Shown piece by piece: positions 2,417 to 31,617 of a stretch of DNA of 32,000 bases. The position numbers and the translations under genes were made by a program. A model generated the notes under the pieces. That model did not search any database. It was given only the letters and a program-made list of their open reading frames with translations, and had not been told where the DNA came from. Origin of the DNA: Candidatus Karelsulcia muelleri (GTDB taxonomy: Bacteria; Bacteroidota; Bacteroidia; Flavobacteriales; Blattabacteriaceae); NCBI RefSeq assembly GCF_022985615.1, contig NZ_CP094965.1:30001-62000 (forward strand). The letters run 5' to 3'. Each line of letters starts with the position of its first letter. Within the stretch, counting starts at the first letter, position 1.

Positions 2417-3199
2417 ATGAAAACTAATTCAAGGATTGAATCCCAATTAAAATACATATATAGATTACAATTAATTCATTTGCGTTTGAAATATTTAAAT
2501 TATATAATAAATAGATTTCCAGTCTTTATTATAAGATTTCTTTTGTTTTTAAAACAAAAAAAAAGATATCTATTCTTTTTAACACAAAGACTAAAAAATA
2601 AAAAAAAACTTTTAAGAAGTAATTCAAAATTAAATATATATAAAAAAAAAATTATACAACTTTTAAAATTACTTCCAAAGCAAAAAAAATTACTTCCAAA
2701 GCAAAAACTAAAACTAAAGAAGTTGGAGATGGATATAGAATATAATTATATTAATTTTCTTTTAAAAAAAAGAAGAAATTTAAAGAAAAAGAATAACTTG
2801 ATTATTAATTCAATAAAAATCAAACAAATTAAAAAATATATTAGGATTAAAGAACTCAGATTTAAAAGTAAAATTATAAATTATAAACAAAAAAAAGAAA
2901 AAATTAATAAAAAGATTATCTTTTTAAAAGAAATTGAAAAGAAAATAAAAAAAAAGATTAATAACAATTTATTAAAAAGATATAAACAGATTATTTCTAT
3001 AAGTGGAATAGCAGTAGTCCCAGTTTATAAAAAGATACCATTTGGTACATATATATTAATTACTCAACAAAAATATTATGAATTATTAGAAAGAAAAAAA
3101 ATAATTATTGAAGAAATTAGTGGGAGAATACTAATAGATTTTTATTTAGCTAATAAAGAAAATAATAATATGAAGAAAATATTATTTAATTTTTATTAG
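2417..3199 (+). CDS. COG1579/DUF164-like coiled-coil protein with a degenerate C4 zinc ribbon
   Basis: The N-terminus (IESQLKYIYRLQLIHLRLKYLNYIINRFP) and the C-terminus (LLKRYKQIISISGIAVVPVYKKIPFGTYILITQQ...IIIEEISGRILID) are collinear with the COG1579 pattern (..LYDLQLID.RI.. / ..RYE.IR...G.AVV.V....C.GC...P.Q......I..C..CGRIL.). All four expected Cys positions are substituted. Confidence 0.55.
   Translation: MKTNSRIESQLKYIYRLQLIHLRLKYLNYIINRFPVFIIRFLLFLKQKKRYLFFLTQRLKNKKKLLRSNSKLNIYKKKIIQLLKLLPKQKKLLPKQKLKLKKLEMDIEYNYINFLLKKRRNLKKKNNLIINSIKIKQIKKYIRIKELRFKSKIINYKQKKEKINKKIIFLKEIEKKIKKKINNNLLKRYKQIISISGIAVVPVYKKIPFGTYILITQQKYYELLERKKIIIEEISGRILIDFYLANKENNNMKKILFNFY
2669..2707. repeat. 21-bp tandem duplication, in frame (LLPKQK x2)
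   Basis: ttacttccaaagcaaaaa occurs at 2669 and again at 2690, inside the COG1579-like CDS. Confidence 0.9.
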
Positions 3200-3273: not shown

Positions 3274-3560
3274 ATACTATACTATACTATACTATACTAT
3301 ACTATACTATACTATACTATACTATACTATACTATACTATAAATAAATAGAATACTATAGTATAGTATACTAATACTAATTATACTAATAGATAATAGAT
3401 AGTATAGTATACTAATACTAATACTAATACTAATAGATAATAGATAATACATTACATTATAATAGATAGTATAGTATACTAATAGTAATACTAAGACTAC
3501 TAAGACTAAGACTAATAGTAATAGTAATAGATAGATAGTATACTATTACTATTACTATAA
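3274..3560. repeat. Composite satellite block: (ACTAT)13, then mosaics of ATAGT, TACTAA, TAGATAA, TAAGAC, TAGTAA and TATTAC units
   Basis: A perfect (actat)13 spans 3276-3340. From 3355 onward short arrays of other units follow, including the reverse-complement unit atagt and the higher-order block aatagatagtatagtatactaata seen twice (about 3394 and 3472). The block ends 17 bp before the peroxiredoxin ATG. Confidence 0.95.
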
Positions 3561-3576
3561 ATAGTATTAATTATAT

Positions 3577-4206
3577 ATGAATACTTTAATAGGAAAAAAA
3601 GCTCCAAATTTTAAGGCGACAGCAGTTTTAAATGGAAATTCAATAGTAAATAATTTTACTTTAGAAAACTTTATAGGCAAGTACGTAGTTTTATTTTTTT
3701 ATCCTAAAGATTTTACTTTTGTATGTCCCACTGAATTACATTCGTTTCAAGAAAAAAAGGATATTTTTTGCAGAAAAAATGTTAAATTAATAGCCGTTTC
3801 TATAGATTCTGAATATACCCATTTAGCTTGGTTACAAATTTCGAAAAAAAAAGGTGGAATTAAAGGAGTAAATTTTACTATAGTTTCTGATATAAATAAA
3901 ACTATTTCTTATTCGTATGGTGTTTTAAGTGGTAATTGGAAAATTAATAAAAAAGCTGAATTAAAAGTTAAAGGAGGTGAGTTAATCGCCTATAGAGGTT
4001 TATTTATAATAGACAAAAAAGGAATTATAAGACATCAATTGATAAATGATTTCCCTTTAGGAAGAAATGTAGACGAGGTAATTAGAATAATAGATGCTTT
4101 GCAATTTTTTGAAACACATGGTGAAGTTTGTCCTGCAAACTGGAAGACGGGAGAAAAAGGTATTAAACCTACTAAAGATGGAATAATTAATTATTGGAAT
4201 GAATAA
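3577..4206 (+). CDS. ahpC: Typical 2-Cys peroxiredoxin (AhpC/Tsa family)
   Basis: Peroxidatic motif FFYPKDFTFVCPTEL and resolving-Cys motif GEVCPANW. 209-aa track ORF. Confidence 0.9.
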   Translation: MNTLIGKKAPNFKATAVLNGNSIVNNFTLENFIGKYVVLFFYPKDFTFVCPTELHSFQEKKDIFCRKNVKLIAVSIDSEYTHLAWLQISKKKGGIKGVNFTIVSDINKTISYSYGVLSGNWKINKKAELKVKGGELIAYRGLFIIDKKGIIRHQLINDFPLGRNVDEVIRIIDALQFFETHGEVCPANWKTGEKGIKPTKDGIINYWNE

Positions 4207-4394
4207 TTAATTAATTAATTATTGTAATGAATAATTAATTAATTATTGTATTGTATTGTAATGAATATTATATTATATTATTGTAATGAATAATTAATTA
4301 TTGTAATGAATAATTAATTATTGTATTGTATTGTATTTGTATTGTATTGTAATGAATATTATATTATATAATTAATTATTGGAATAATTAATTA
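4184..4394. repeat. Array seeded on the 3-prime end of the peroxiredoxin CDS, plus an (ATTGT)n microsatellite
   Basis: The last codons plus stop (attattggaatgaataattaatt, from 4190) recur as attattgtaatgaataattaatt at about 4219, 4277 and 4297. They are interleaved with attgtattgtattgta and atattatattatat blocks. A final aattaattattggaataattaatt copy abuts tRNA-Leu. Confidence 0.85.
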
Positions 4395-4565: not shown

Positions 4566-4568
4566 AAA

Positions 4569-4658
4569 TTATTTCTTTTTATGTCTATTTTTTCGGCTTT
4601 GTTTTTTTCTTTTATGTGTTGCTATTTTTTTTCTTTTTCTTTTTTTGCCATTTGGCAT
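4569..4658 (-). CDS. 29-aa Lys/Arg-rich ORF, candidate small ribosomal protein (bS22-like)
   Basis: Own translation of the reverse strand: MPNGKKRKRKKIATHKRKKQSRKNRHKKK*. The ATG is the complement of 4656-4658 and the TAA is the complement of 4569-4571. It is below the track size cutoff. The KKRKRxK..HKRKK pattern resembles the small basic bS22 family as I recall it. The stop is 3 nt from the tRNA-Leu(UAG) 5-prime end. Confidence 0.5.
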   Translation of the reverse strand: MPNGKKRKRKKIATHKRKKQSRKNRHKKK

Positions 4659-4943
4659 TTTAATAAAAAATTTTTAGTTATTAATTAATTATTTAATTTT
4701 ATTTACTATTTAAACTACTGTAAATTGACTAGCTTTAATTTTATTAATTTAAATTACGTTAATAATAAATTTATTTATTTTAGAAAATTGTCCAGTATTT
4801 TCTTCTATCACTACTTTTTACAAAGTCTTTATTTACATTTATGAAGTAAATTCAGATGATGACTTTAAAGAATTACTATAATTTAATAATTAATTACTAG
4901 AATTTAAGAATTTAAAGAATAAGGGAAATTGTTTACCAATCAG

Positions 4944-11718: not shown

Positions 11719-12000
11719 TTAGTCTTTCTTTCTTTTACTGACTTTACTTTGACTTCTTAGTCTTTGACTTCTTAGTATTTGACTTCTTAGTCTTAGTCTT
11801 TGACTTAGTCTTTGACTTAGTCTTTGACTGAGTCTTTGACTGAGTCTTTGACTGAGTCTTTGACTGAGTCTTTGACTGAGTCTTTGACTTTGACTGAGTC
11901 TTTGACTGAGTCTGAGTCTTTGACTGAGTATTTGACTGAGACTGAGTCTGAGACGTCTTCTGAGACGTCTGAGTCTGAGACTGAGTATGAGTCTTTGATT
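11719..12000. repeat. 12-bp minisatellite family (TCTTTGACTGAG and variants)
   Basis: tctttgactgag x5 is perfect at 11821-11880. It is flanked by variant units (tctttgacttag, tcttagtc, tctgagac) from about 11719 to 12000. Confidence 0.9.
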
Positions 12001-12553
12001 GAGGAGTTTCAATAATCTGTTTAACTGTAGAGATAACTGTATTAGAGTCATGTAATATTACTATTTTTTTTGGAGGTATATTTTTTACATAATAATTTTC
12101 TCCTATATCTAAATTGTCAATATTAATCTCTATATGATCTACCATATTCTTAGGTAAAGCCTTAATTTTTAATTTTCGGATTTTCGATATATATTCCCCA
12201 CCTTTATAAACTCCTTTGGCTTTCCCTATTGGTCTAATAGGCACTTCATAAGTAATATACTTTCTAGGGTTTAATTCCAAAAAATCTAAATGCAGGATTT
12301 TTTCTGTAATTGGGTTATATTGGATTTCTTTTAATATAGTAGTAATATTGATTTTATTGTTTATAGATACTATAAATTGGCTTAATGTGTTATTTTTAAT
12401 TATTTTTTCTACTAAATAAGTATCCAAAACAAATTTAATGTTTTTATTCTTCCCATACACTATTCCAGGCGTGTAACCAGATTCTCTTAAACTTTTTATA
12501 TGTTTTTTATTTACAATTACTCTTTTTTCTACTTTTAAAATGATTCTTTTCAT
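11744..12553 (-). CDS. rplY: 50S ribosomal protein L25 (Ctc type) with a repeat-encoded Ser/Lys/Thr/Gln tail
   Basis: The N-terminal ~185 aa (MKRIILKVEKR...GYTPGIVYGKNKN...HLDFLEL...) are collinear with bL25/Ctc. The last ~85 aa are SKTQ-type low complexity encoded by the 12-bp array. Confidence 0.85.
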   Translation of the reverse strand: MKRIILKVEKRVIVNKKHIKSLRESGYTPGIVYGKNKNIKFVLDTYLVEKIIKNNTLSQFIVSINNKINITTILKEIQYNPITEKILHLDFLELNPRKYITYEVPIRPIGKAKGVYKGGEYISKIRKLKIKALPKNMVDHIEINIDNLDIGENYYVKNIPPKKIVILHDSNTVISTVKQIIETPQSKTHTQSQTQTSQKTSQTQSQSNTQSKTQTQSKTQSKSKTQSKTQSKTQSKTQSKTQSKTKSKTKSKTKTKKSNTKKSKTKKSK

Positions 12554-12715: not shown

Positions 12716-13114
12716 ATGATATATTTTTCTTTTTACTATAAGTTTTCATTTAAAAAAAAAATAGAAAAAATATTACGATATGAAAAAAGTAATTTTATAA
12801 AAATTATTTATATTTTTTGCAATAATAAATATATTTCTACTCTAAATTTTTTTGTTTTCAAAAAAACAAAATTGACTGATGTTATTACATTAAAAAAGAC
12901 GGATCGCAACAAAAAAAAAGTAGGAGAAATTTATATAAATATTGATATGATAAAATTTAACTCTATTGTCTTTAAAAAAACATTTTATGAGGAATTAAAA
13001 AGAGTAATGATACATGGAGTATTACATTTAATTGGTTACGAAGATAATAATAAGCAAATTGCTGAAAAAGAAAAGTTTTATTTATGTCCTCATTATGTCC
13101 TCAAAAAGATTTGA
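12716..13114 (+). CDS. ybeY: rRNA maturation endoribonuclease YbeY
   Basis: It has the metal-binding motif MIHGVLHLIGYED and the ...EKEKFYL C-terminus. The ATG at 12716 is preferred over the track TTG at 12686, which lies in the tRNA-Cys duplication. Confidence 0.85.
   Translation: MIYFSFYYKFSFKKKIEKILRYEKSNFIKIIYIFCNNKYISTLNFFVFKKTKLTDVITLKKTDRNKKKVGEIYINIDMIKFNSIVFKKTFYEELKRVMIHGVLHLIGYEDNNKQIAEKEKFYLCPHYVLKKI
13082..13103. repeat. 11-bp x2 perfect duplication across the mnmG start codon
   Basis: ttatgtcctca occurs at 13082-13092 and 13093-13103. Each copy carries an ATG (13084 and 13095). Confidence 0.9.
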
Positions 13115-19603: not shown

Positions 19604-19709
19604 TATAATACCTGGTATAATTAATACCTACCACCTAATACCTGGTACCTGGTACCTAATACCTGGTACCTGGTACCTAATACCTGGTACCTGGTACCTA
19701 ATACCTGGA
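19604..19709. repeat. 21-bp minisatellite (CCTAATACCTGGTACCTGGTA) x3.6 plus degenerate lead-in
   Basis: Perfect copies lie at 19634, 19655 and 19676, with a partial copy at 19697-19709. Degenerate copies (tataatacctggtataattaataccta) span 19604-19633. Each unit contains GGTACC palindromes. Confidence 0.95.
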
Positions 19710-22700
19710 ATATATTTTTTAATTGCTATGTAAACTTTTTTGTTATTTACATAACAATAGAAATTTATCTTTCTTTTATTTAAGATTACTTCTTTAACTA
19801 AAGCCTCAGTGCTTATATTTTTATAATATTTTTTTATAGTTATTAAAAACATCTCATCCTCACTGTTAATATACACGACTATTCTCTGAGTAACAGTAAA
19901 GCCTTTTTTCTTTCTCAAATTTTGAATTACTTTTATTAAATCTCTTAATAAGCCTTCTAAAATTAATTTCTTCGTGAGTTGTGAGTCTATTCCAACAATG
20001 AAATCTTGATTAATACTTAATTTCCAGAAGTTTTTGGGTTTGTAATCTATTATAAATTCTTTTATAGATAGCTTAAATCTTTTATTATTTATATTTATAT
20101 CTATATTTTCTTTTATTTCTAACTTATTCTTATTTGTTTTTATATAAGAATTTATCAAATTAATATCTCTTTTATATTTTTTTCCTAATAAATTATAATT
20201 AGGTTTTATATCAATTGTTGCTATCTTATTAAGATTTTGTTTTATTTTAATTTTATTTACATTAACTTCATTTTTAATTAAATTTAAGATATCTTTAGAT
20301 AATAAGATATTATTAGACTCTTTTTTAAGTAGAATAATTGCTTTGGTTAATTTTTGTCGAACTTTAAGATTATTTGTTTTTCTAAGAAATAATATTTTTG
20401 AAGTAATATTTTGTGCTAATTTCATTCTCTTTTCTAGAGATTTATCTACTAATTTCTTTCTATAAAGAGGAAATTTAACTAGATGTACACTTTCATAAGG
20501 TTCTTTTTTTTTTATATTGAGATTATTATAAAATTTTTCCATAAAAAATGGGGCAATAGGTGAAGAGATTTTAAATATAGTAATTAAACAAGTATAAAGG
20601 GTTTTATAAGCGTTAATCTTATCTTCATTATAATCATTTTTCCAGAACTTTCTTCTAGAAAGCCTAATATACCAATTACTTAAATCAAAAATTACAAATT
20701 TTTCTATTTTTTTTGCTACTTTAAAAATGTTATATTTTTTATAATAGATTGATATATCTTTTATTAAAGTATTTAATTTAGAAATTATCCATTTTTCTAA
20801 TAACTTTAGATTTTCTATTTTAAGTTCTATTTCATTGGGGAAAAAATTATCTATATTTGCATATAAAGCAAAGAAAGAATATGAATTAAATAAAGTACCA
20901 AAAAACTTTTTTGTTACCTTTTTTATTCCTTTTTCATCAAATTTAATATTTTCCCAGGATTTAGAATTAGAGATTAGATACCATCTAATAGGATCAGAAC
21001 CATATTTTTTTAATAGTTTTATTGGATCAATTGTATTTCCCTGATTTTTAGACATTTTTTTACCTAATTTATCTAAAATTAAACCATTGGAAATGGCCGT
21101 TTTAAATGCAATAGAATTCGAAATTAGAGTAGAAAGAATATGCAAAGTAAAAAACCACCCTCTAGTTTGATCTACACCTTCACAAATAAAGTCAGCTGGA
21201 ATATTTATTTTATTTTCTATTAATTTTCTATTCTCAAAAGGATAATGTAGTTGTGCATAAGGCATTGCCCCGGAATCAAACCAAACATCCACAATTTCGG
21301 GTTCTCTTTTTAGTGGTATTTTTTTTTTAGAGACTAAGATAACTTTATCTAAAGTATGTTTATGAAGATCTATTTTTGAATAATTTTTTCTTTTCATATT
21401 TCCAATTCTAAAATCTTCAAATGGATTTTTTTTCATATATCCAGCATCAATTGATTTCTCTATTTCCTTAATTAATTCTTCAATTGAGCCTATTATTTTT
21501 TCTTCTTTATTTGCAGTTGAACGCCAAATTGGTAATGGAATTCCCCAATATCTACTTCTAGAAATATTCCAATCTTTTAAATTTTTTAACCAATTTTCGA
21601 ATCGTTTAATCCCTGTACTTTTTGGTATCCAATTAATTAATTTATTTAATTTAATTAATTTGTTTTTATATTTGCTGGTTTTAATAAACCAAGAACTTAT
21701 TGGATAATATAATATTGGGGCTTTAGTTCTCCAACAATGTGGATAAGAATGGATATGCTTGCCAATTAGAAAAATTTTCTCTTCTTTTTTTAAATATAAA
21801 GCGATTTTAAAATCAGTTGATAAATCGTTTGATAATGATTTTTCTTTATTATTTTCATATTCTTTTTTAATAAATTTTCCACTAAATAGTGGATGTAAAT
21901 TTTTTATAAATTTACCTTTATTATCTACTAAAGGGATTAAAGTATTTTTTTTCCCCTTTATCATCATCATAGGAATTTTGTTTTTTTTAGCCAATTCAAA
22001 ATCTTTTTCACCAAAACACGGAGCAATATGCACAACTCCTGTCCCTTCTGATTCACTGACGAAATCTCCATCTATGTCTCCATCTATGATTTTAAAAGCT
22101 TTTTCACAACCTTCATAAGGTTTTTTCCAAGTAATAAGTTGCTCATACTTTGTATCCAAAAGTACTTTCCCCTTAAAGGTTTTAATAATTTTATATGGAA
22201 TTTTATTATTCTTTTTTTTAAATAAAGTAATTTTTTTCTTTCTATTTCTTAGAAAAAAAAAGCCACTATCTAAAGTTTTAGATATTGTTTTCTTAGAAAG
22301 AATTATATTTATTTTTTTTAATGTATAAGGATTATAAGTATTTATTAAAACATATTCTATATTTCTTCTTATTGCTAATGCAGTATTAGATGGTAGTGTC
22401 CAAGGTGTAGTCGTCCATGATAATATATATATATCATCTTTAATATCATCAAATTTACAAGATAGAGTGTTTTTCTTAATTTGGAATTGAGCTATTACTG
22501 TAGTATCTGTTCTGTTTTTATAACAACCTGGGTAATTTAATTCATGTGTACTTAAACCAGTTCCAGCAATTGGAGAATAAGGTTGAATTTTAAAATCTTT
22601 ATAAAGATTATTTTGATTATATATTTTTTTTAATAACCACCATACTGTTTCTATATATTTTGTATCATAAGTAAAATATGCCTTTTTGAAGTCTAACCAA

Positions 22701-23122
22701 TAACCAATTTTCTTACTAATTTCATTCCATTTTTTAACATTTTTGTTTACCAGACTTTTACATTTTTTATTAAATGTTTTTATTCCAATTTTTTTTTTAA
22801 TATCGTTTTTTGATATCCCCATTTTCTTTTCTACTACTAATTCTACTGGCAACCCATGAGTATCCCAACCGGCTATTCTATTTACTTTATTATTGTTTAA
22901 TGTAAAATATCTACAGAATATATCTTTAATAGTTCTAGAAAATAAATGATGTAAACCTGGTTTACCATTTATTGATGGTGGTCCCTCATAAAATACAATA
23001 TTCTTTTTATAATTTTTGGATAAACATTTTTTAAAGATTTTTTTTTCTTTCCAAAATTTTTTTATTTCGTTTGAAATTTCATACATTTTTAACTTATTGT
23101 ATTCTCTGAATATTTTTGCCAT
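19628..23122 (-). CDS. ileS: Isoleucine--tRNA ligase with a repeat-encoded C-terminal extension
   Basis: 1164-aa ORF with PPSINGKPGLHHLFSRTIKD (HIGH region) and KMSKNQGN (KMSKS). The last 27 aa (PGIRYQV x3 + PGIRW) are translated from the 21-bp array. Confidence 0.95.
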   Translation of the reverse strand: MAKIFREYNKLKMYEISNEIKKFWKEKKIFKKCLSKNYKKNIVFYEGPPSINGKPGLHHLFSRTIKDIFCRYFTLNNNKVNRIAGWDTHGLPVELVVEKKMGISKNDIKKKIGIKTFNKKCKSLVNKNVKKWNEISKKIGYWLDFKKAYFTYDTKYIETVWWLLKKIYNQNNLYKDFKIQPYSPIAGTGLSTHELNYPGCYKNRTDTTVIAQFQIKKNTLSCKFDDIKDDIYILSWTTTPWTLPSNTALAIRRNIEYVLINTYNPYTLKKINIILSKKTISKTLDSGFFFLRNRKKKITLFKKKNNKIPYKIIKTFKGKVLLDTKYEQLITWKKPYEGCEKAFKIIDGDIDGDFVSESEGTGVVHIAPCFGEKDFELAKKNKIPMMMIKGKKNTLIPLVDNKGKFIKNLHPLFSGKFIKKEYENNKEKSLSNDLSTDFKIALYLKKEEKIFLIGKHIHSYPHCWRTKAPILYYPISSWFIKTSKYKNKLIKLNKLINWIPKSTGIKRFENWLKNLKDWNISRSRYWGIPLPIWRSTANKEEKIIGSIEELIKEIEKSIDAGYMKKNPFEDFRIGNMKRKNYSKIDLHKHTLDKVILVSKKKIPLKREPEIVDVWFDSGAMPYAQLHYPFENRKLIENKINIPADFICEGVDQTRGWFFTLHILSTLISNSIAFKTAISNGLILDKLGKKMSKNQGNTIDPIKLLKKYGSDPIRWYLISNSKSWENIKFDEKGIKKVTKKFFGTLFNSYSFFALYANIDNFFPNEIELKIENLKLLEKWIISKLNTLIKDISIYYKKYNIFKVAKKIEKFVIFDLSNWYIRLSRRKFWKNDYNEDKINAYKTLYTCLITIFKISSPIAPFFMEKFYNNLNIKKKEPYESVHLVKFPLYRKKLVDKSLEKRMKLAQNITSKILFLRKTNNLKVRQKLTKAIILLKKESNNILLSKDILNLIKNEVNVNKIKIKQNLNKIATIDIKPNYNLLGKKYKRDINLINSYIKTNKNKLEIKENIDININNKRFKLSIKEFIIDYKPKNFWKLSINQDFIVGIDSQLTKKLILEGLLRDLIKVIQNLRKKKGFTVTQRIVVYINSEDEMFLITIKKYYKNISTEALVKEVILNKRKINFYCYVNNKKVYIAIKKYIPGIRYQVPGIRYQVPGIRYQVPGIRW
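22065..22088. repeat. 12-bp x2 perfect in-frame duplication (IDGD x2) in ileS
   Basis: tctccatctatg occurs at 22065-22076 and 22077-22088. Confidence 0.9.
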
Positions 23123-23139
23123 TTTTTATTTTTATTTAT

Positions 23140-23835
23140 ATATTCTTCTTATTCTAAGTCTAAGTCTTCTAAGTCTGTCTTCTAAGTCTGTCTTCTAAGT
23201 CTAAGTCTTCTAAGTCTGTCTTCTAAGTCTAAGTCTAAGTCTTCTAAGTCTGTCTTCTAAGTCTGTCTTCTAAGTCTGTCTTCTAAGTCTTCTAAGTCTG
23301 TCTCTGTCTTCTACTTACTTATTCTACTTTCTACTTTACTTTCTACTTACTTACTTATTCTACTTACTTATTCTACTTACTTATTCTACTTACTTATTCT
23401 ACTTACTTATCTTATCTTATTCTACTTACTTATTCTACTTTACTTTCTATTCTACTTACTTACTTACTTATGTTTGTACTTTACTTTGTACTTGTACTTG
23501 TACTTACGTCTAGACTAAGATAATTAAAGAAAGATAAAGATAATTAGAAGTAGAATTAGAATTCTTATAATTATTAGAATTATTAGAATTCTTATAATTA
23601 TTATAATTAATTATTAGAATTATTATAATAATTAATTAATTAATTAATTAATTAATTAATTAATTAGGAATTAGGAATTAGGAATTAGGAATTAGGAATT
23701 AGTTTTTTTCCTTTAGTTTAGTTTAGTTTAGTTTAGTTTAGTTTAGTTTAGTTTAGTTTAGTTTAGTTTAGTTTAGTTTAGTTTAGTTTAGTTTAGTTTA
23801 GTTGAAACAAACAAAACAAAACAAAACAAAAAAAT
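23140..23835. repeat. About 700-bp spacer built from at least eight abutting tandem arrays
   Basis: In order: the TCTAAGTC/TGTCT family (about 23152-23310); the TTCTACTTACTTA 13-mer family (about 23306-23470); GTACTT (about 23474-23506); the ATTAGAATT/CTTATAATT family (about 23545-23625); (AATT)3+6 (23629-23665); (AGGAATT)5 (23666-23700); (TTTAG)18 (23712-23801); (AAAAC)n (about 23805-23827). Confidence 0.95.
23712..23801. repeat. (TTTAG)18 perfect pentamer array
   Basis: 18 uninterrupted tttag units, ending 42 bp before the grpE ATG. Confidence 0.95.
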
Positions 23836-23843
23836 AGAAACAA

Positions 23844-24428
23844 ATGCAAATGAATAACAAGAATCATCAAATTAAAAAGAACAACAAAAAAAAATCACTT
23901 TTATTAAAACTAATTAAATATATTGAACATAGTAATATTAAAAACAAAGAAAAAATCATAAAATTAATGTTAAACTTTAATAATTATAAAAAAAAGAAAA
24001 TTAATAAATTAATAGGAATTCTTGCTGAATTTGAAAATTATAAAAAACGTATAGAAAAAAACAAAAAGCTAATAATAGAAAATGCTAATAAAAACTTATT
24101 ATTAGAATTGCTAAGTTTAGCAGAGGATTTTAATAGATGCTTTAATAGCAAGAAAGAGAAAGATAGCAAGAAAGAGAAAGATAGCAAGAAAGATAAGGAA
24201 GGAATAAAAATAATAAATAGAAAATTATGGAACCTTTTAAAAAAAGAAGGGATAAAAAAAATCAAATCGAAAAAAGGAGATGTTTTTAATACAGATATTC
24301 ATGAAGCCGTATCAATACAAACTATAAAAAAAACTGAATTGAAAGGAAAAATATTACACATAATAGAATCAGGATATAGTTTTAAAAACAAAATAATTAA
24401 ATATACTAAAGTAATTGTAGGAAAATAA
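23844..24428 (+). CDS. grpE: Nucleotide exchange factor GrpE
   Basis: ...LAEFENYKKRIEKNKKLIIENANKNLLLELLSLAEDFNRC... and the C-terminal ...FNTDIHEAVSIQ...GYSFKNKIIKYTKVIVGK are collinear with GrpE. It lies immediately upstream of dnaJ. Confidence 0.9.
   Translation: MQMNNKNHQIKKNNKKKSLLLKLIKYIEHSNIKNKEKIIKLMLNFNNYKKKKINKLIGILAEFENYKKRIEKNKKLIIENANKNLLLELLSLAEDFNRCFNSKKEKDSKKEKDSKKDKEGIKIINRKLWNLLKKEGIKKIKSKKGDVFNTDIHEAVSIQTIKKTELKGKILHIIESGYSFKNKIIKYTKVIVGK
24147..24195. repeat. 18-bp x2.7 in-frame tandem repeat (SKKEKD SKKEKD SKKDKE) in grpE
   Basis: agcaagaaagagaaagat occurs at 24147-24164 and 24165-24182, with a partial third copy. Confidence 0.9.
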
Positions 24429-24436
24429 AAAAATAA

Positions 24437-25525
24437 ATGAATAAAAAAGATTATTATGAAATACTTGGAGTAAATAGAGATGCAACTCTTGATCAAATAA
24501 AAAGAGCATACAGAAAATTAGCATTAAAATATCATCCAGATAAAAATAGAGAAAATAAAAAAGAGGCTGAAGAAAAATTCAAAGAAGCTGCAGAAGCTTA
24601 TAATGTATTAAGTGATAAAAATAAGAGAAATACATACGATCAATATGGACATCATCAAGAATATCATAATAAAAGTAATAATATAAATATAGAAGATATA
24701 TTATCTAATTTTGGAGATATATTTAATGATACATTAGGTGGTGGTTTCACAGAATTTGAAGAAGAAAATCCTGAAAATAGGAATAGAGGAGAAGACTTAA
24801 GAATTAAAATTAAATTAGATTTATGGGAAATTTATAAAGGCGTAAAAACAAAAGTAAAAGTTAAACGACTTAAATTTTACAAAAATTTAAACTTTAAAAG
24901 TTGTGATTATTGTGAAGGAACAGGCAATATTAATAAATATACTAGTACTTTTTTAGGTAGAATACAAACTAGTATAACTTGTAATCAATGTTTAGGGTTA
25001 GGTAAAATAATAAAAAATACTCCACTAGGCGTAAATAATCAAGGTCTAAAGAAAGTTGAAGAATTAATAAATATTAAAATTCCAGCTGGTGCAAGGAATA
25101 AAATGCACCTGAGAATATTAGGTAAAGGGAACGATCCAGTTTTTGGTATTGGTGTACCAGGTGATTTAATTGTTATAGTAGAAGAAATACCACATAAAAA
25201 CTTAAATAGAGATGGGGATAATTTATCATATGATTTGTATTTATCAATCCCCAAAGCAATATTAGGAACATTTGAATATATCCCTACAATAACTGGGAAA
25301 GCCAGAGTGAAAATAGAACCAGGAATTCAACCAGGAAAAATTTTAAGATTAAAAGGAAAAGGACTACCAAAAATAAAAGGATTTGGAAGAGGAGACTTAT
25401 TTGTCAATATAAATATTTGGATTCCTAAAAAAATAAATAGTGAACAACGACTTTTTTTAAAACAAATTAAAAATGATCCTAATTTTATACCAAAAACTAA
25501 AAATAATAAAGAGTATTTTTTTTGA
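24437..25525 (+). CDS. dnaJ: Chaperone DnaJ with a reduced Cys-rich domain
   Basis: It has the J domain (DYYEILGV...[13 protein letters not shown]) and C-terminal substrate-binding domains. Only two CxxCxGxG motifs remain ([16 protein letters not shown]). Confidence 0.9.
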
Positions 25526-29537: not shown

Positions 29538-31415
29538 TTATTTAACCTCTTCATAATCTACATCTTGTACTTGTGAATCACTAGATTTTTTTTCTTTATT
29601 TATATTATCGGTTTCGTTTTTATTAAAAATTTCTTGTGAAGTTGCCCAAAATTTATTAATCTTCTCAACATATTTATCAATATCTATAAAGTTTTTATTA
29701 CTTGTAGCTTTTTTTAATTTTAATAAATAAGTTTCTATATTTTTTAGTTTGTCAGGAGTTAATTGTTTTCCATATTCTTTAATATATTTCTCAGATTGAA
29801 AAATTAATGTATCCGCATAATTAATTTGATCGATTTCTTTTTTCAATTTTTCGTCTCTTTCATAATTTTTTTCGGCCTCTTTTTTCATTTTTTCTATATC
29901 TTCTTTGCTTAAACCAGAAGAAGCTTGAATTCTAATTCTTTGTTCTCTTCCAGTTCCTTTATCTTTAGCAGAAACATTTAAAATACCATTAGCATCTATA
30001 TCAAAACATACTTCTATTTGTGGTATACCTCTAGGAGCTGGAGGAATGTCAACTAAATCAAATTGCCCAATTTCTTTATTATCTTTAAATAGTGGTCTTT
30101 CTCCTTGTCCCACTTTAACTGTTACAGCTGATTGGTTATCAATTGCTGTAGAAAATATCTCTGATTTTCTAGTTGGTATTGTAGTGTTAGATTCTATTAA
30201 TTTAGTAAAAACACCTCCTAAGGTTTCTATTCCTAAAGACAATGGAGTTACATCTAATAATAAAACATCTTTTATATCACCTGCTAATACTCCACCTTGA
30301 ATAGCAGCACCAATAGCTACGACTTCATCTGGATTAACACCTTTTGAAGGTACTCTTTGAAAAAATTTCTCTACTTCTTCTTGAATTTTTGGTATTCTAG
30401 TTGATCCCCCTACTAAAATAACTTCATTTATATCTTTTACTTTTAAATCTGCAGCTTTTAAAGCATCTTTACAAGGCAAAATAGATCTTTTAACTAATTG
30501 ATCAGATAACTCTTCAAATTTTGCTCTAGTTAAGGTTTTAACTAAATGTTTTGGTCCAGTTGCTGTTGCAGTTATATAAGGTAAATTAATTTCTGTTTTA
30601 GTACTAGAAGAAAGTTCAATTTTGGATTTTTCTGCTGATTCTTTTAGTCTTTGATGTGCAATAGGATCATTCCCAAGATTTATTCCTTGTTCTGCTTTAA
30701 ATTCTTTTATTAACCAATTGATTATAATTTTATCAAAATCATCTCCACCGAGATGAGTATCACCGTTTGTTGATAATACTTCAAAAACTCCATCTCCCAA
30801 TTCAAGAATTGAAATGTCAAAAGTTCCACCACCTAAATCATAAACTACTATTTTTTTATTTTTATTCTTTTTATCTAAGCCATAAGCTAAAGCAGCTGCT
30901 GTTGGCTCATTGATTATTCGTTCTACTTCTAGTCCAGCAATTTCACCAGCCTCTTTAGTGGCTTGACGTTGGGAATCATTAAAATATGCTGGTACTGTAA
31001 TTACTGCTTTAGTCACTTTATATCCTAAGTAATCTTCTGCAGTTTTTTTCATTTTTTGAAGTATCATTGCAGATATTTCTTGTGGAGAATATAATTTTTT
31101 CTCTATTTTTACTCTTGGAGTATCGTTTTCACCTTTAATAATTTCATAGGGTACATATTTTAATTCTTCAATTACTTCAGAATATTTTCTTCCCATAAAA
31201 CGTTTAATAGAGAATATAGTATTTTTAGGATTAGTTACTGCTTGGCGTTTAGCTGGATCACCTATTTTCATTTCTCCTCCTTCTTCAATAAAGGCTATTA
31301 TAGATGGAGTTGTACGTTTGCCTTCAGAATTTGGTATAACAGTTGGACCATTTACTTCAATAACTGAAACACAAGAATTAGTAGTACCTAAATCTATACC
31401 TATTATTTTATTCAT
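29538..31415 (-). CDS. dnaK: Chaperone DnaK (Hsp70)
   Basis: [18 protein letters not shown]..., [26 protein letters not shown]. 625 aa. Confidence 0.97.
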
Positions 31416-31460
31416 GTTAAATTCAATTAATTTTTTAATTAATAGACTTAATTATATTAT

Positions 31461-31617
31461 ATATAATATAATATAATATAATATAATATAATATAATATA
31501 ATATAATATAATATAATATAATATAATATAATATAATATAATTAATTATATAATTAATTATATAATTAATTATATATAATATTAAGATTAATATAATATA
31601 ATATAATATAATATAAT
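31461..31617. repeat. (ATATA)16, (ATTAATTATATA)3, then (ATATA)n again
   Basis: A perfect period-5 array spans 31461-31540. A 12-bp x3 array spans 31541-31576. A second period-5 run spans about 31591-31617. All lie in the divergent dnaK/rplM spacer. Confidence 0.95.

Follow-up and report, generated by a model that had tools for sequence, protein, structure and literature searches.

What kind of DNA separates ileS from the grpE-dnaJ heat-shock pair in a genome of Candidatus Karelsulcia (Sulcia) muelleri, and how did it come to lie there? The question is raised by a 32,000-nucleotide stretch of contig NZ_CP094965.1 (positions 30,001 to 62,000; hereafter, the window), in which ileS (19628..23122, minus strand; 1164 aa; Pfam tRNA-synt_1, Anticodon_1 and DUF5915; start codon at 23120-23122) is divergent from grpE (23844..24428, plus strand; 194 aa; Pfam GrpE), with dnaJ (24437..25525, plus strand; Pfam DnaJ and DnaJ_C) directly downstream of grpE. 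The two start codons are 721 bp apart (23123-23843), making this the longest spacer in the window. We find that the spacer is built almost throughout of tandem repeats, and the explanation that we hold with good confidence is that it is a compound microsatellite/minisatellite block, grown by slipped-strand mispairing at the ileS|grpE junction of an approximately 43-kb inversion that runs from ileS to dnaB.

Arrays called by Tandem Repeats Finder (TRF) cover 94% of the 721-bp spacer, compared to a mean of 6.3% and a maximum of 24% in 100 dinucleotide-preserving shuffles, in agreement with the initial annotation, which had described a near-absence of unique sequence between the two start codons. 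At least eight arrays are present, their units arranged head-to-tail, and the eight listed in that annotation were all recovered where it had placed them, both by TRF and by direct reading. The same junction is found in two sister genomes, L001 (CP094963.1, 156,700 bp) and L010 (CM132443.1, 152,970 bp), and the ~33 bp closest to ileS (23123..23155) form an anchor that is kept in all three junction-bearing genomes in a three-way alignment. From 23144 to 23316 runs the TCTAAGTC-family array, in which TRF finds 10.8 copies of the 13-mer TTCTAAGTCTGTC and two copies of a 75-bp higher-order unit; it is followed by the TTCTACTTACTTA-family array (23309-23470, 12.7 copies by TRF) and a GTACTT array (23474-23505, 5.3 copies by TRF). 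A unique centre of 34 bp, ACGTCTAGACTAAGATAATTAAAGAAAGATAAAG (23506-23539), contains the palindrome GTCTAGAC and is also present in L001. Beyond it lie the TRF-called ATTAGAATT-family array (23540-23634), about nine copies of the self-complementary AATT (~23630-23666), an AGGAATT array (23662-23702, 5.9 copies), a short unique block, TTTTTTTCC (23703-23711), that is common to the window and L001, and a TTTAG array (23712-23803, 18.4 copies). The last component is an AAACA/AAAAC run (23805-23843) that reaches the grpE ATG and occurs in all three genomes, being longer in L010. Three of the arrays are 100% pure, the AGGAATT and TTTAG arrays among them, and the 34-bp centre and TTTTTTTCC are the only non-repeat pieces of more than 2 bases. 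Unit lengths of 4, 5, 6, 7, 9 and 13 bp are combined with higher-order periods of 41-75 bp, and no single unit dominates. The pyrimidine-rich left half and part-way change in composition that had been noted initially are likewise evident: purines make up 27% of the top strand to the left of ~23511 and 55% to the right, with the switch marked by the 34-bp centre.

Comparison of the three genomes shows how rapidly this block changes. L001, the closest genome, matches the window at 99.3% of ungapped columns outside the spacer, and the flanking genes of L010 are about 98-99% identical to those of the window (~1-1.8% divergence). The length variation envisaged in the initial annotation is seen between genomes, as the spacer measures 721 bp in the window and 625 and 530 bp in the two sister genomes at 0.7-1.8% divergence. 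Between the window and L001, the spacer represents 3.2% of the aligned length and contributes 39% of all bases in insertions or deletions (indels). The ~33-bp ileS anchor, an ACGTCTA centre, (TTTAG)n and the AAACA run are common to the three spacers, TTTTTTTCC is limited to the window and L001, and the arrays between these shared anchors are entirely different in unit and copy number. In place of the TTCTACTTACTTA-family array, L001 carries (TATTC)19, a long (CTTA)n and (TTCTACTTAC)n; it is also nearly devoid of the ATTAGAATT array (a 58-bp gap) and of AATT, and its AGGAATT array amounts to one unit. The TCTAAGTC-family array has shrunk to a few units in both sister genomes, and L010 possesses a 224-bp GACTTAGAC/GACGTA array, which corresponds to the TCTAAGTC family of the window in reverse complement. 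Elsewhere in the window, many indels are gains or losses of a single unit at TRF arrays (for example, at 13093, 17331, 22077 and 31503). A test of whether the inserted bases equal those adjacent to them classed no more than 31-40% of indels as tandem copy changes, but this is a crude measure, defeated by multi-unit indels and forced alignment within the spacer. Conserved flanks around an array copy number that varies among close relatives, the pattern by which slippage-made arrays are recognized, are thus what we observe at this locus.

The spacer is the extreme case of a pattern that extends across the window. Tandem repeats occupy 56% of intergenic bases and 6% of coding bases, and they account for 10.7% of the whole window compared to 1.3% in shuffled sequence. 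The spacers that precede ahpC and dnaK are likewise filled with arrays, and arrays extend into the 3' ends of ileS and rplY as well as the 5' end of grpE.

The position of the block becomes intelligible when gene order is compared among relatives. The best IleS matches are to planthopper Sulcia, which have genomes of 140-160 kb, with 98% identity to the Karelsulcia IleS P0001; an exact search for the window's GrpE matched no record. In five planthopper Sulcia loci (L002 (DICMUL), L006, L007, L008 and L009), ksgA, tRNA-Met and ileS stand in series, with tRNA-Met 40-100 bp upstream of ileS, and in three other loci (L011, L012 and L013) dnaB is divergent from grpE across 100-170 bp. These orders in eight relatives indicate that ileS and grpE are not ancestral neighbors and that the ileS/grpE spacer is a junction of the ~43-kb Pyrops inversion, a Pyrops-specific Sulcia rearrangement that the text of Deng et al. 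(2023, PMC10333215) describes as "~43 kb including 32 CDSs" (coding sequences). The distance from the ileS start to the grpE start in CM132418.1 is 43,054 bp, which agrees with this published size, and the window probably comes from a Pyrops Sulcia or a very close relative.

L015 (CP094964.1, 155,888 bp; 3731-4000) carries the reciprocal junction, at which ksgA and tRNA-Met are followed, after 123 bp, by dnaB. The initial annotation had raised the possibility that the block marks a place where ancestral genes were deleted and replaced. This idea does not hold, because ksgA, tRNA-Met and dnaB all survive at the reciprocal junction and thus no gene was deleted; what lies between ileS and grpE, seen against the relatives, is an inversion junction and not a gene loss. 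Judged by gene order, the block is a rearrangement scar rather than a gene-deletion site. While the inversion itself is known from Deng et al. (2023), the repeat block at its junction is an undescribed example of slippage-driven compound microsatellites: tandem repeats, at junctions or elsewhere in Sulcia, are not mentioned in the text of PMC10333215 (its figures and supplements lying outside the search), and no mention of ileS/grpE-type repeats was found in the planthopper Sulcia papers searched. The L015 spacer between ksgA and the tRNA gene, ahead of the reciprocal junction, has an array of its own, (ATCTAAGATATCTTAAG)x3. A third arrangement, rpsK|grpE, occurs in L014 (CP138191.1, a 117.7-kb Sulcia genome; 2728-3000 and 3688-3937), with a repeat-rich spacer of 273 bp and, unusually, 250 bp separating grpE from dnaJ.

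Some parts of the block can be matched to the ancestral spacers. Of the 22 bp that adjoin the ileS ATG, 21 match the ancestral tRNA-Met|ileS leader of L002. At the L015 junction, the ~50 bp next to dnaB are collinear with the reverse complement of the dnaB-proximal spacer of L013 (best 25-mer match, E = 9e-9 in a search of this small size). The dnaB|grpE spacer of L013, which is of the ancestral type, consists of ACGTCTAAGTATAAGTCTAAG..., (ATA)7 and (AAGAAGAAT)n and includes GTCTAAGTATAA, and that of L011, also ancestral in type, consists of (GTATAA)8 followed by TTAATTAATTATAATAATAAG. The ancestral-type words that recur in the window are TCTAAGTCTAAGT, the reverse complement of GTATAA/AAAGTAAAG, and AATTAATTATAAT. 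Specifically, the GTACTT array corresponds to the reverse complement of the (GTATAA)n plus AAAGTAAAG of L011, with a local alignment score of 55 compared to 20-24 for orientation controls. As relatives without the inversion already carry microsatellites in the dnaB|grpE spacer, the seeds of the arrays predate the inversion. Ancestral spacers measure 40-170 bp and those of junction-bearing genomes 530-721 bp, lengths which indicate that a few hundred bases of array were added after the inversion. For base-level placement of the breakpoints, both junctions were aligned to ancestral-type spacers, and in this alignment the orientations of the TCTAAGTC and ATTAGAATT families partly conflict. The left arm may accordingly have one of three candidate origins: it could be the ileS leader turned around, the former dnaB|grpE array copied in inverted orientation, or the product of a template switch that came afterwards.

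The inversion brought ileS, with no more than ~22-33 bp of leader left to it, up against the part of the former dnaB|grpE spacer that adjoins grpE. Each array would then have started from a short seed and grown or shrunk by replication slippage, with selection weak and no strong bias toward deletion, and the promoters would reside in the few conserved pieces, that is, the 33-bp ileS anchor and the (TTTAG)n plus AAACA block at grpE. We favor slippage because the units are pure and head-to-tail, higher-order periods are present, indels are unit-sized and the flanks are conserved around the free turnover of units, as expected where DNA is poorly constrained. The block is best read as fast-changing and probably neutral DNA produced by replication slippage and not as a designed control element.

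Some of our results weigh against this account. The reciprocal junction of the same inversion spans merely 123 bp, so junction status alone does not cause expansion. The TTTAG array is pure, with 18.4 copies in the window, 19.4 in L001 (9411-9507) and 18.2 in L010 (5856-5947), and is the sole array that has kept its unit, position and copy number across the three genomes while its neighbors were replaced; it is restricted to genomes with the ileS|grpE junction. Were the array purely neutral and highly mutable, a stable 18-19 copies would not be expected; the constancy may stem from reduced mutability, from a length at equilibrium or from selection acting on length. Simple slippage also leaves unexplained a reverse-complement relation between the two arms of the block: the left arm of the window aligns to the reverse complement of the right arm of L010 with a score of 109, compared to 14-39 for direct, reverse-only and complement-only controls, though this symmetry is weak inside the window alone (44 versus 20-33). 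The inversion may simply have set two purine-rich leaders head to head and so produced it; template switching, or repeats through which the inversion took place, are other possible sources. Finally, copy numbers may be somewhat inexact, as the assemblies are Nanopore-based with short-read polishing. According to the text of PMC10333215, the Sulcia of three Pyrops species were assembled from Nanopore and Illumina data since short reads alone left Sulcia fragmented.

Does the block serve the genes on either side of it? The initial annotation had proposed that both promoters lie within, or are built from, repeat DNA. On the grpE side this stands, as the 132 bp that precede the ATG consist solely of (TTTAG)n and the AAACA run, which places the grpE promoter in or beside repeat DNA. 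On the ileS side, the conserved 33-bp anchor, with its TATATAAAT stretch, could act as a minimal promoter element. A scan of 1.2 kb for sigma-70-type sites found none inside the spacer and three outside it, compared to 7.3 expected. Promoters of Bacteroidetes carry the -7 motif TAnnTTTG. This motif is not enriched in the window (49 matches versus 62 expected), and its single exact match in the spacer, at 23469, is an unconvincing ~370 bp upstream of grpE. Consensus promoter scanning is uninformative in this genome of 23% GC content.

Other searches for function gave little. No open reading frame (ORF) of at least 20 aa lies within the spacer, and three others that reach across its edges derive from the repeats and are spurious. 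A search of the window at Rfam gathering thresholds and a permissive search of 22900-24100 returned nothing relevant, yielding two chance microRNA matches (E ~0.2). Folded as a single strand, the entire spacer scored z = -0.9 relative to shuffles, with no global hairpin despite the symmetry of the arms. We considered and rejected a clustered regularly interspaced short palindromic repeats (CRISPR) array or a dispersed element of the repetitive extragenic palindrome or miniature inverted-repeat type, as the units are contiguous and local: TCTAAGTCT occurs 15 times in the TCTAAGTC-family array and once elsewhere in the window, compared to 0.42 expected. A replication origin with iterons was rejected as well, given that the arrays are not conserved, the junction is lineage-specific and GC skew follows gene orientation. 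The free turnover of arrays between sister genomes argues against a sequence-specific function for most of the block, and we infer that most of it would have none.

It is nevertheless conceivable that repeats at this locus have been put to use. The arrays, especially (TTTAG)18-19 and AAACA, would then be or include the promoter or an upstream activating element, and shifts in their copy number would tune grpE-dnaJ and/or ileS expression, a dependence raised in the initial annotation, in the manner of a contingency switch. The purely repetitive 132 bp next to grpE and the constancy of TTTAG in unit, position and copy number both fit such a role, and TAGTTTAG is one base off TAnnTTTG. There is also a precedent in Buchnera, where a one-base homopolymer change at ibpA governs aphid heat tolerance (PMC1847839). 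We consider this distinctly unlikely, however, because the spacer holds no sigma-70-type site, the lone and distant TAnnTTTG match belongs to a motif that is not enriched, and most arrays are swapped outright between genomes 0.7-1.8% apart with no visible constraint. Moreover, ileS and grpE are housekeeping genes, unlike the surface and restriction genes typical of contingency loci, and similar arrays occur in other spacers and even at the ends of genes. In its narrower form, in which (TTTAG)18-19 with AAACA, and perhaps the first units on the ileS side, would be a repeat-built promoter or upstream element whose length is held by selection, the proposal receives equally slight credence from us. 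If true, slippage alleles would provide heritable, host-level variation in grpE-dnaJ expression, as a larger-scale analogue of the Buchnera ibpA polymorphism, and such a promoter would serve a genome whose original ileS and dnaB upstream context went with the inversion.

The arm symmetry bears on a different proposal, that self-complementary or shared microsatellites (AATT, ATTATAAT and the ATTAGAATT family) were the substrate that caused the inversion and that the symmetry is the resulting scar. This is compatible with slippage as the cause of the block's later growth, but we regard it as unlikely. The 17-mer TATAATTATTAGAATTA is found in both junctions (in the ATTAGAATT array of the window and in L015), the 13-mer AATTAATTATAAT in both junctions as well as in the ancestral-type spacer of L011, and (AATT)n is its own reverse complement; the match between the window's left arm and the reverse-complemented L010 right arm far exceeds its controls, and in Portiera repetitive spacers correlate with rearrangements (PMC3673631). 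Yet the words in common are short low-complexity sequences made up of A and T only, matches from junction to junction are mostly direct rather than inverted, and outgroup tRNA-Met|ileS spacers lack these motifs. The weakness of the symmetry within the window also speaks against it, and head-to-head purine-rich leaders could produce the same effect. Mis-assembly or polishing error of low-complexity reads could in principle generate such a block, and the Sulcia of this lineage did break in short-read assemblies so that Nanopore reads were required (text of PMC10333215), array copy numbers being difficult to polish. An artifact is nonetheless very improbable: three independent assemblies agree in architecture and in the identity and order of their anchors, mapping of long and short reads to the published genomes showed no breaks according to the same text, and each array is at most 165 bp, such that 2x150 bp pairs with a 350-bp insert could span it. 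A remnant of a deleted gene or an iteron replication origin might be suspected in the longest spacer of the window, located between divergent genes and containing a strand composition switch. We give this next to no weight, since the reciprocal junction retains all of the ancestral neighbors, the ileS|grpE junction is a recent, lineage-specific one, ancestral spacers measure 40-170 bp, the array sequence is not conserved and GC skew tracks gene orientation across the window.

The closest parallels to the block are found in the Portiera symbionts of whiteflies and the Sulcia of leafhoppers. In Portiera aleyrodidarum of Bemisia tabaci, microsatellites have proliferated in enlarged spacers along with rearrangements and the loss of replication and repair genes (Sloan and Moran, 2013, PMC3673631). 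That case and ours share an ancient insect endosymbiont with a tiny genome, short tandem repeats concentrated in spacers, unit-sized indels, and a tie between repeats and rearrangement in a group otherwise famed for stability. Here, the likeness consists of repeats and rearrangement as seen in 32 kb of genome, with 56% of intergenic versus 6% of coding bases in repeats and the largest block at an inversion junction. The likeness does not extend to the units, as a 7-bp unit dominates in Portiera whereas units of 4-13 bp with higher-order periods are found here. Furthermore, expansion in Portiera is genome-wide (coding fraction 69%) and tied to dnaQ having been lost along with further replication and repair genes, whereas the genome considered here stays at about 156 kb and has one inversion only. 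In two of three Pyrops Sulcia, holA is a pseudogene, as reported in the text of Deng et al. (2023, PMC10333215).

The microsatellites of leafhopper Sulcia differ in their number of copies even inside one host (Waneka et al., 2020, PMC7952229), and the majority of indels in Sulcia are microsatellites growing or shrinking, which has been ascribed to replication slippage (PMC7952229; PMC13345377, 2026). The symbiont genus and the variability of repeat copy number, within hosts in that case, are the same. The differences are ones of scale and setting, with single arrays of ~50-140 bp there as opposed to a 721-bp concatenation of at least eight arrays here, which in addition sits at an inversion junction and shows wholesale replacement of units between sister lineages. 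The Pyrops Sulcia inversion described in the text of PMC10333215 is the same rearrangement, with ileS|grpE as one of its two junctions. With regard to expression, the comparison is to the homopolymer in the Buchnera ibpA heat-shock promoter, for which effects on expression and host fitness were measured (Dunbar et al., 2007, PMC1847839), and to phase variation by simple sequence repeats in free-living pathogens. Buchnera likewise has a slippage-prone repeat upstream of a heat-shock gene in an obligate symbiont, and by analogy a change in repeat length upstream of such a gene could, in principle, alter its expression. In Buchnera, however, the repeat lies within a mapped promoter spacer, while the arrays described here are far larger and are described from sequence.

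No new mechanism is revealed on present evidence. Sulcia is, however, the textbook case of a frozen endosymbiont genome, and here genes that are near-identical (0.7-1.8% divergence) flank intergenic DNA that has been rewritten by repeat expansion, the most extreme of which sits exactly on a known inversion junction. The locus offers a natural test in which two essential transcription units were kept running after their upstream regions were swapped and flooded with repeats, and the spacer, which evolves very fast, supplies a marker with which the population genetics and heteroplasmy of the symbiont could be followed.

Repeats within genes were also observed. The 3' end of ileS contains an in-frame 21-bp array (19625-19708; 3.6 copies, 100% pure) that encodes a C-terminal PGIRYQV repeat; L001 has two 9-bp insertions in it, and IleS ranges from 1083 to 1164 aa among planthopper Sulcia. 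Inside the rplY/L25 ORF (11744..12553, minus strand), a 270-bp in-frame block of 12-bp-family arrays (11731-12003) extends ribosomal protein L25 at its C-terminus by a long (TQSK)n/(KTKS)n tail, and the ORF measures 269 aa in the window, 249 aa in L001 and 201 aa in L008. The N-terminus of GrpE varies through in-frame tandem duplications (window 23844-23900; L001 9290-9375; L010 6001-6070), and the protein measures 178-184 aa in relatives that lack the inversion, 194 aa in the window, 211 aa in L010, 215 aa in L001 and 228 aa in L014.

Among the spacers, the region upstream of dnaK (29538..31415, minus strand) comprises near-pure arrays of (ATTAT)~20 and (TATAATTAAT)4 (31420-31617) and differs from that of L001 by a 40-bp block, equal to eight units. 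ahpC is flanked by compound-array spacers at 3274-3557 and 4184-4351, each 75-77% tandem repeat, with units ATACT, TAATAGA and TACTAAGAC in one and TAAT and TATTG in the other. Unlike its neighbors, the 377-bp spacer between trpS and tRNA-Leu (4567-4943) is merely 11% tandem repeat and may be a decayed gene remnant. A 260-aa ORF beside lipA (2417-3199, plus strand) has no Pfam match even at E = 0.01. Across the planthopper Sulcia loci examined (L001, L002 and L006-L009), the tandem-repeat fraction runs from 1.9% in L008 to 9.6% in L006, with 10.7% in the window, a five-fold variation indicating that repeat load is lineage-dependent and not confined to Pyrops.

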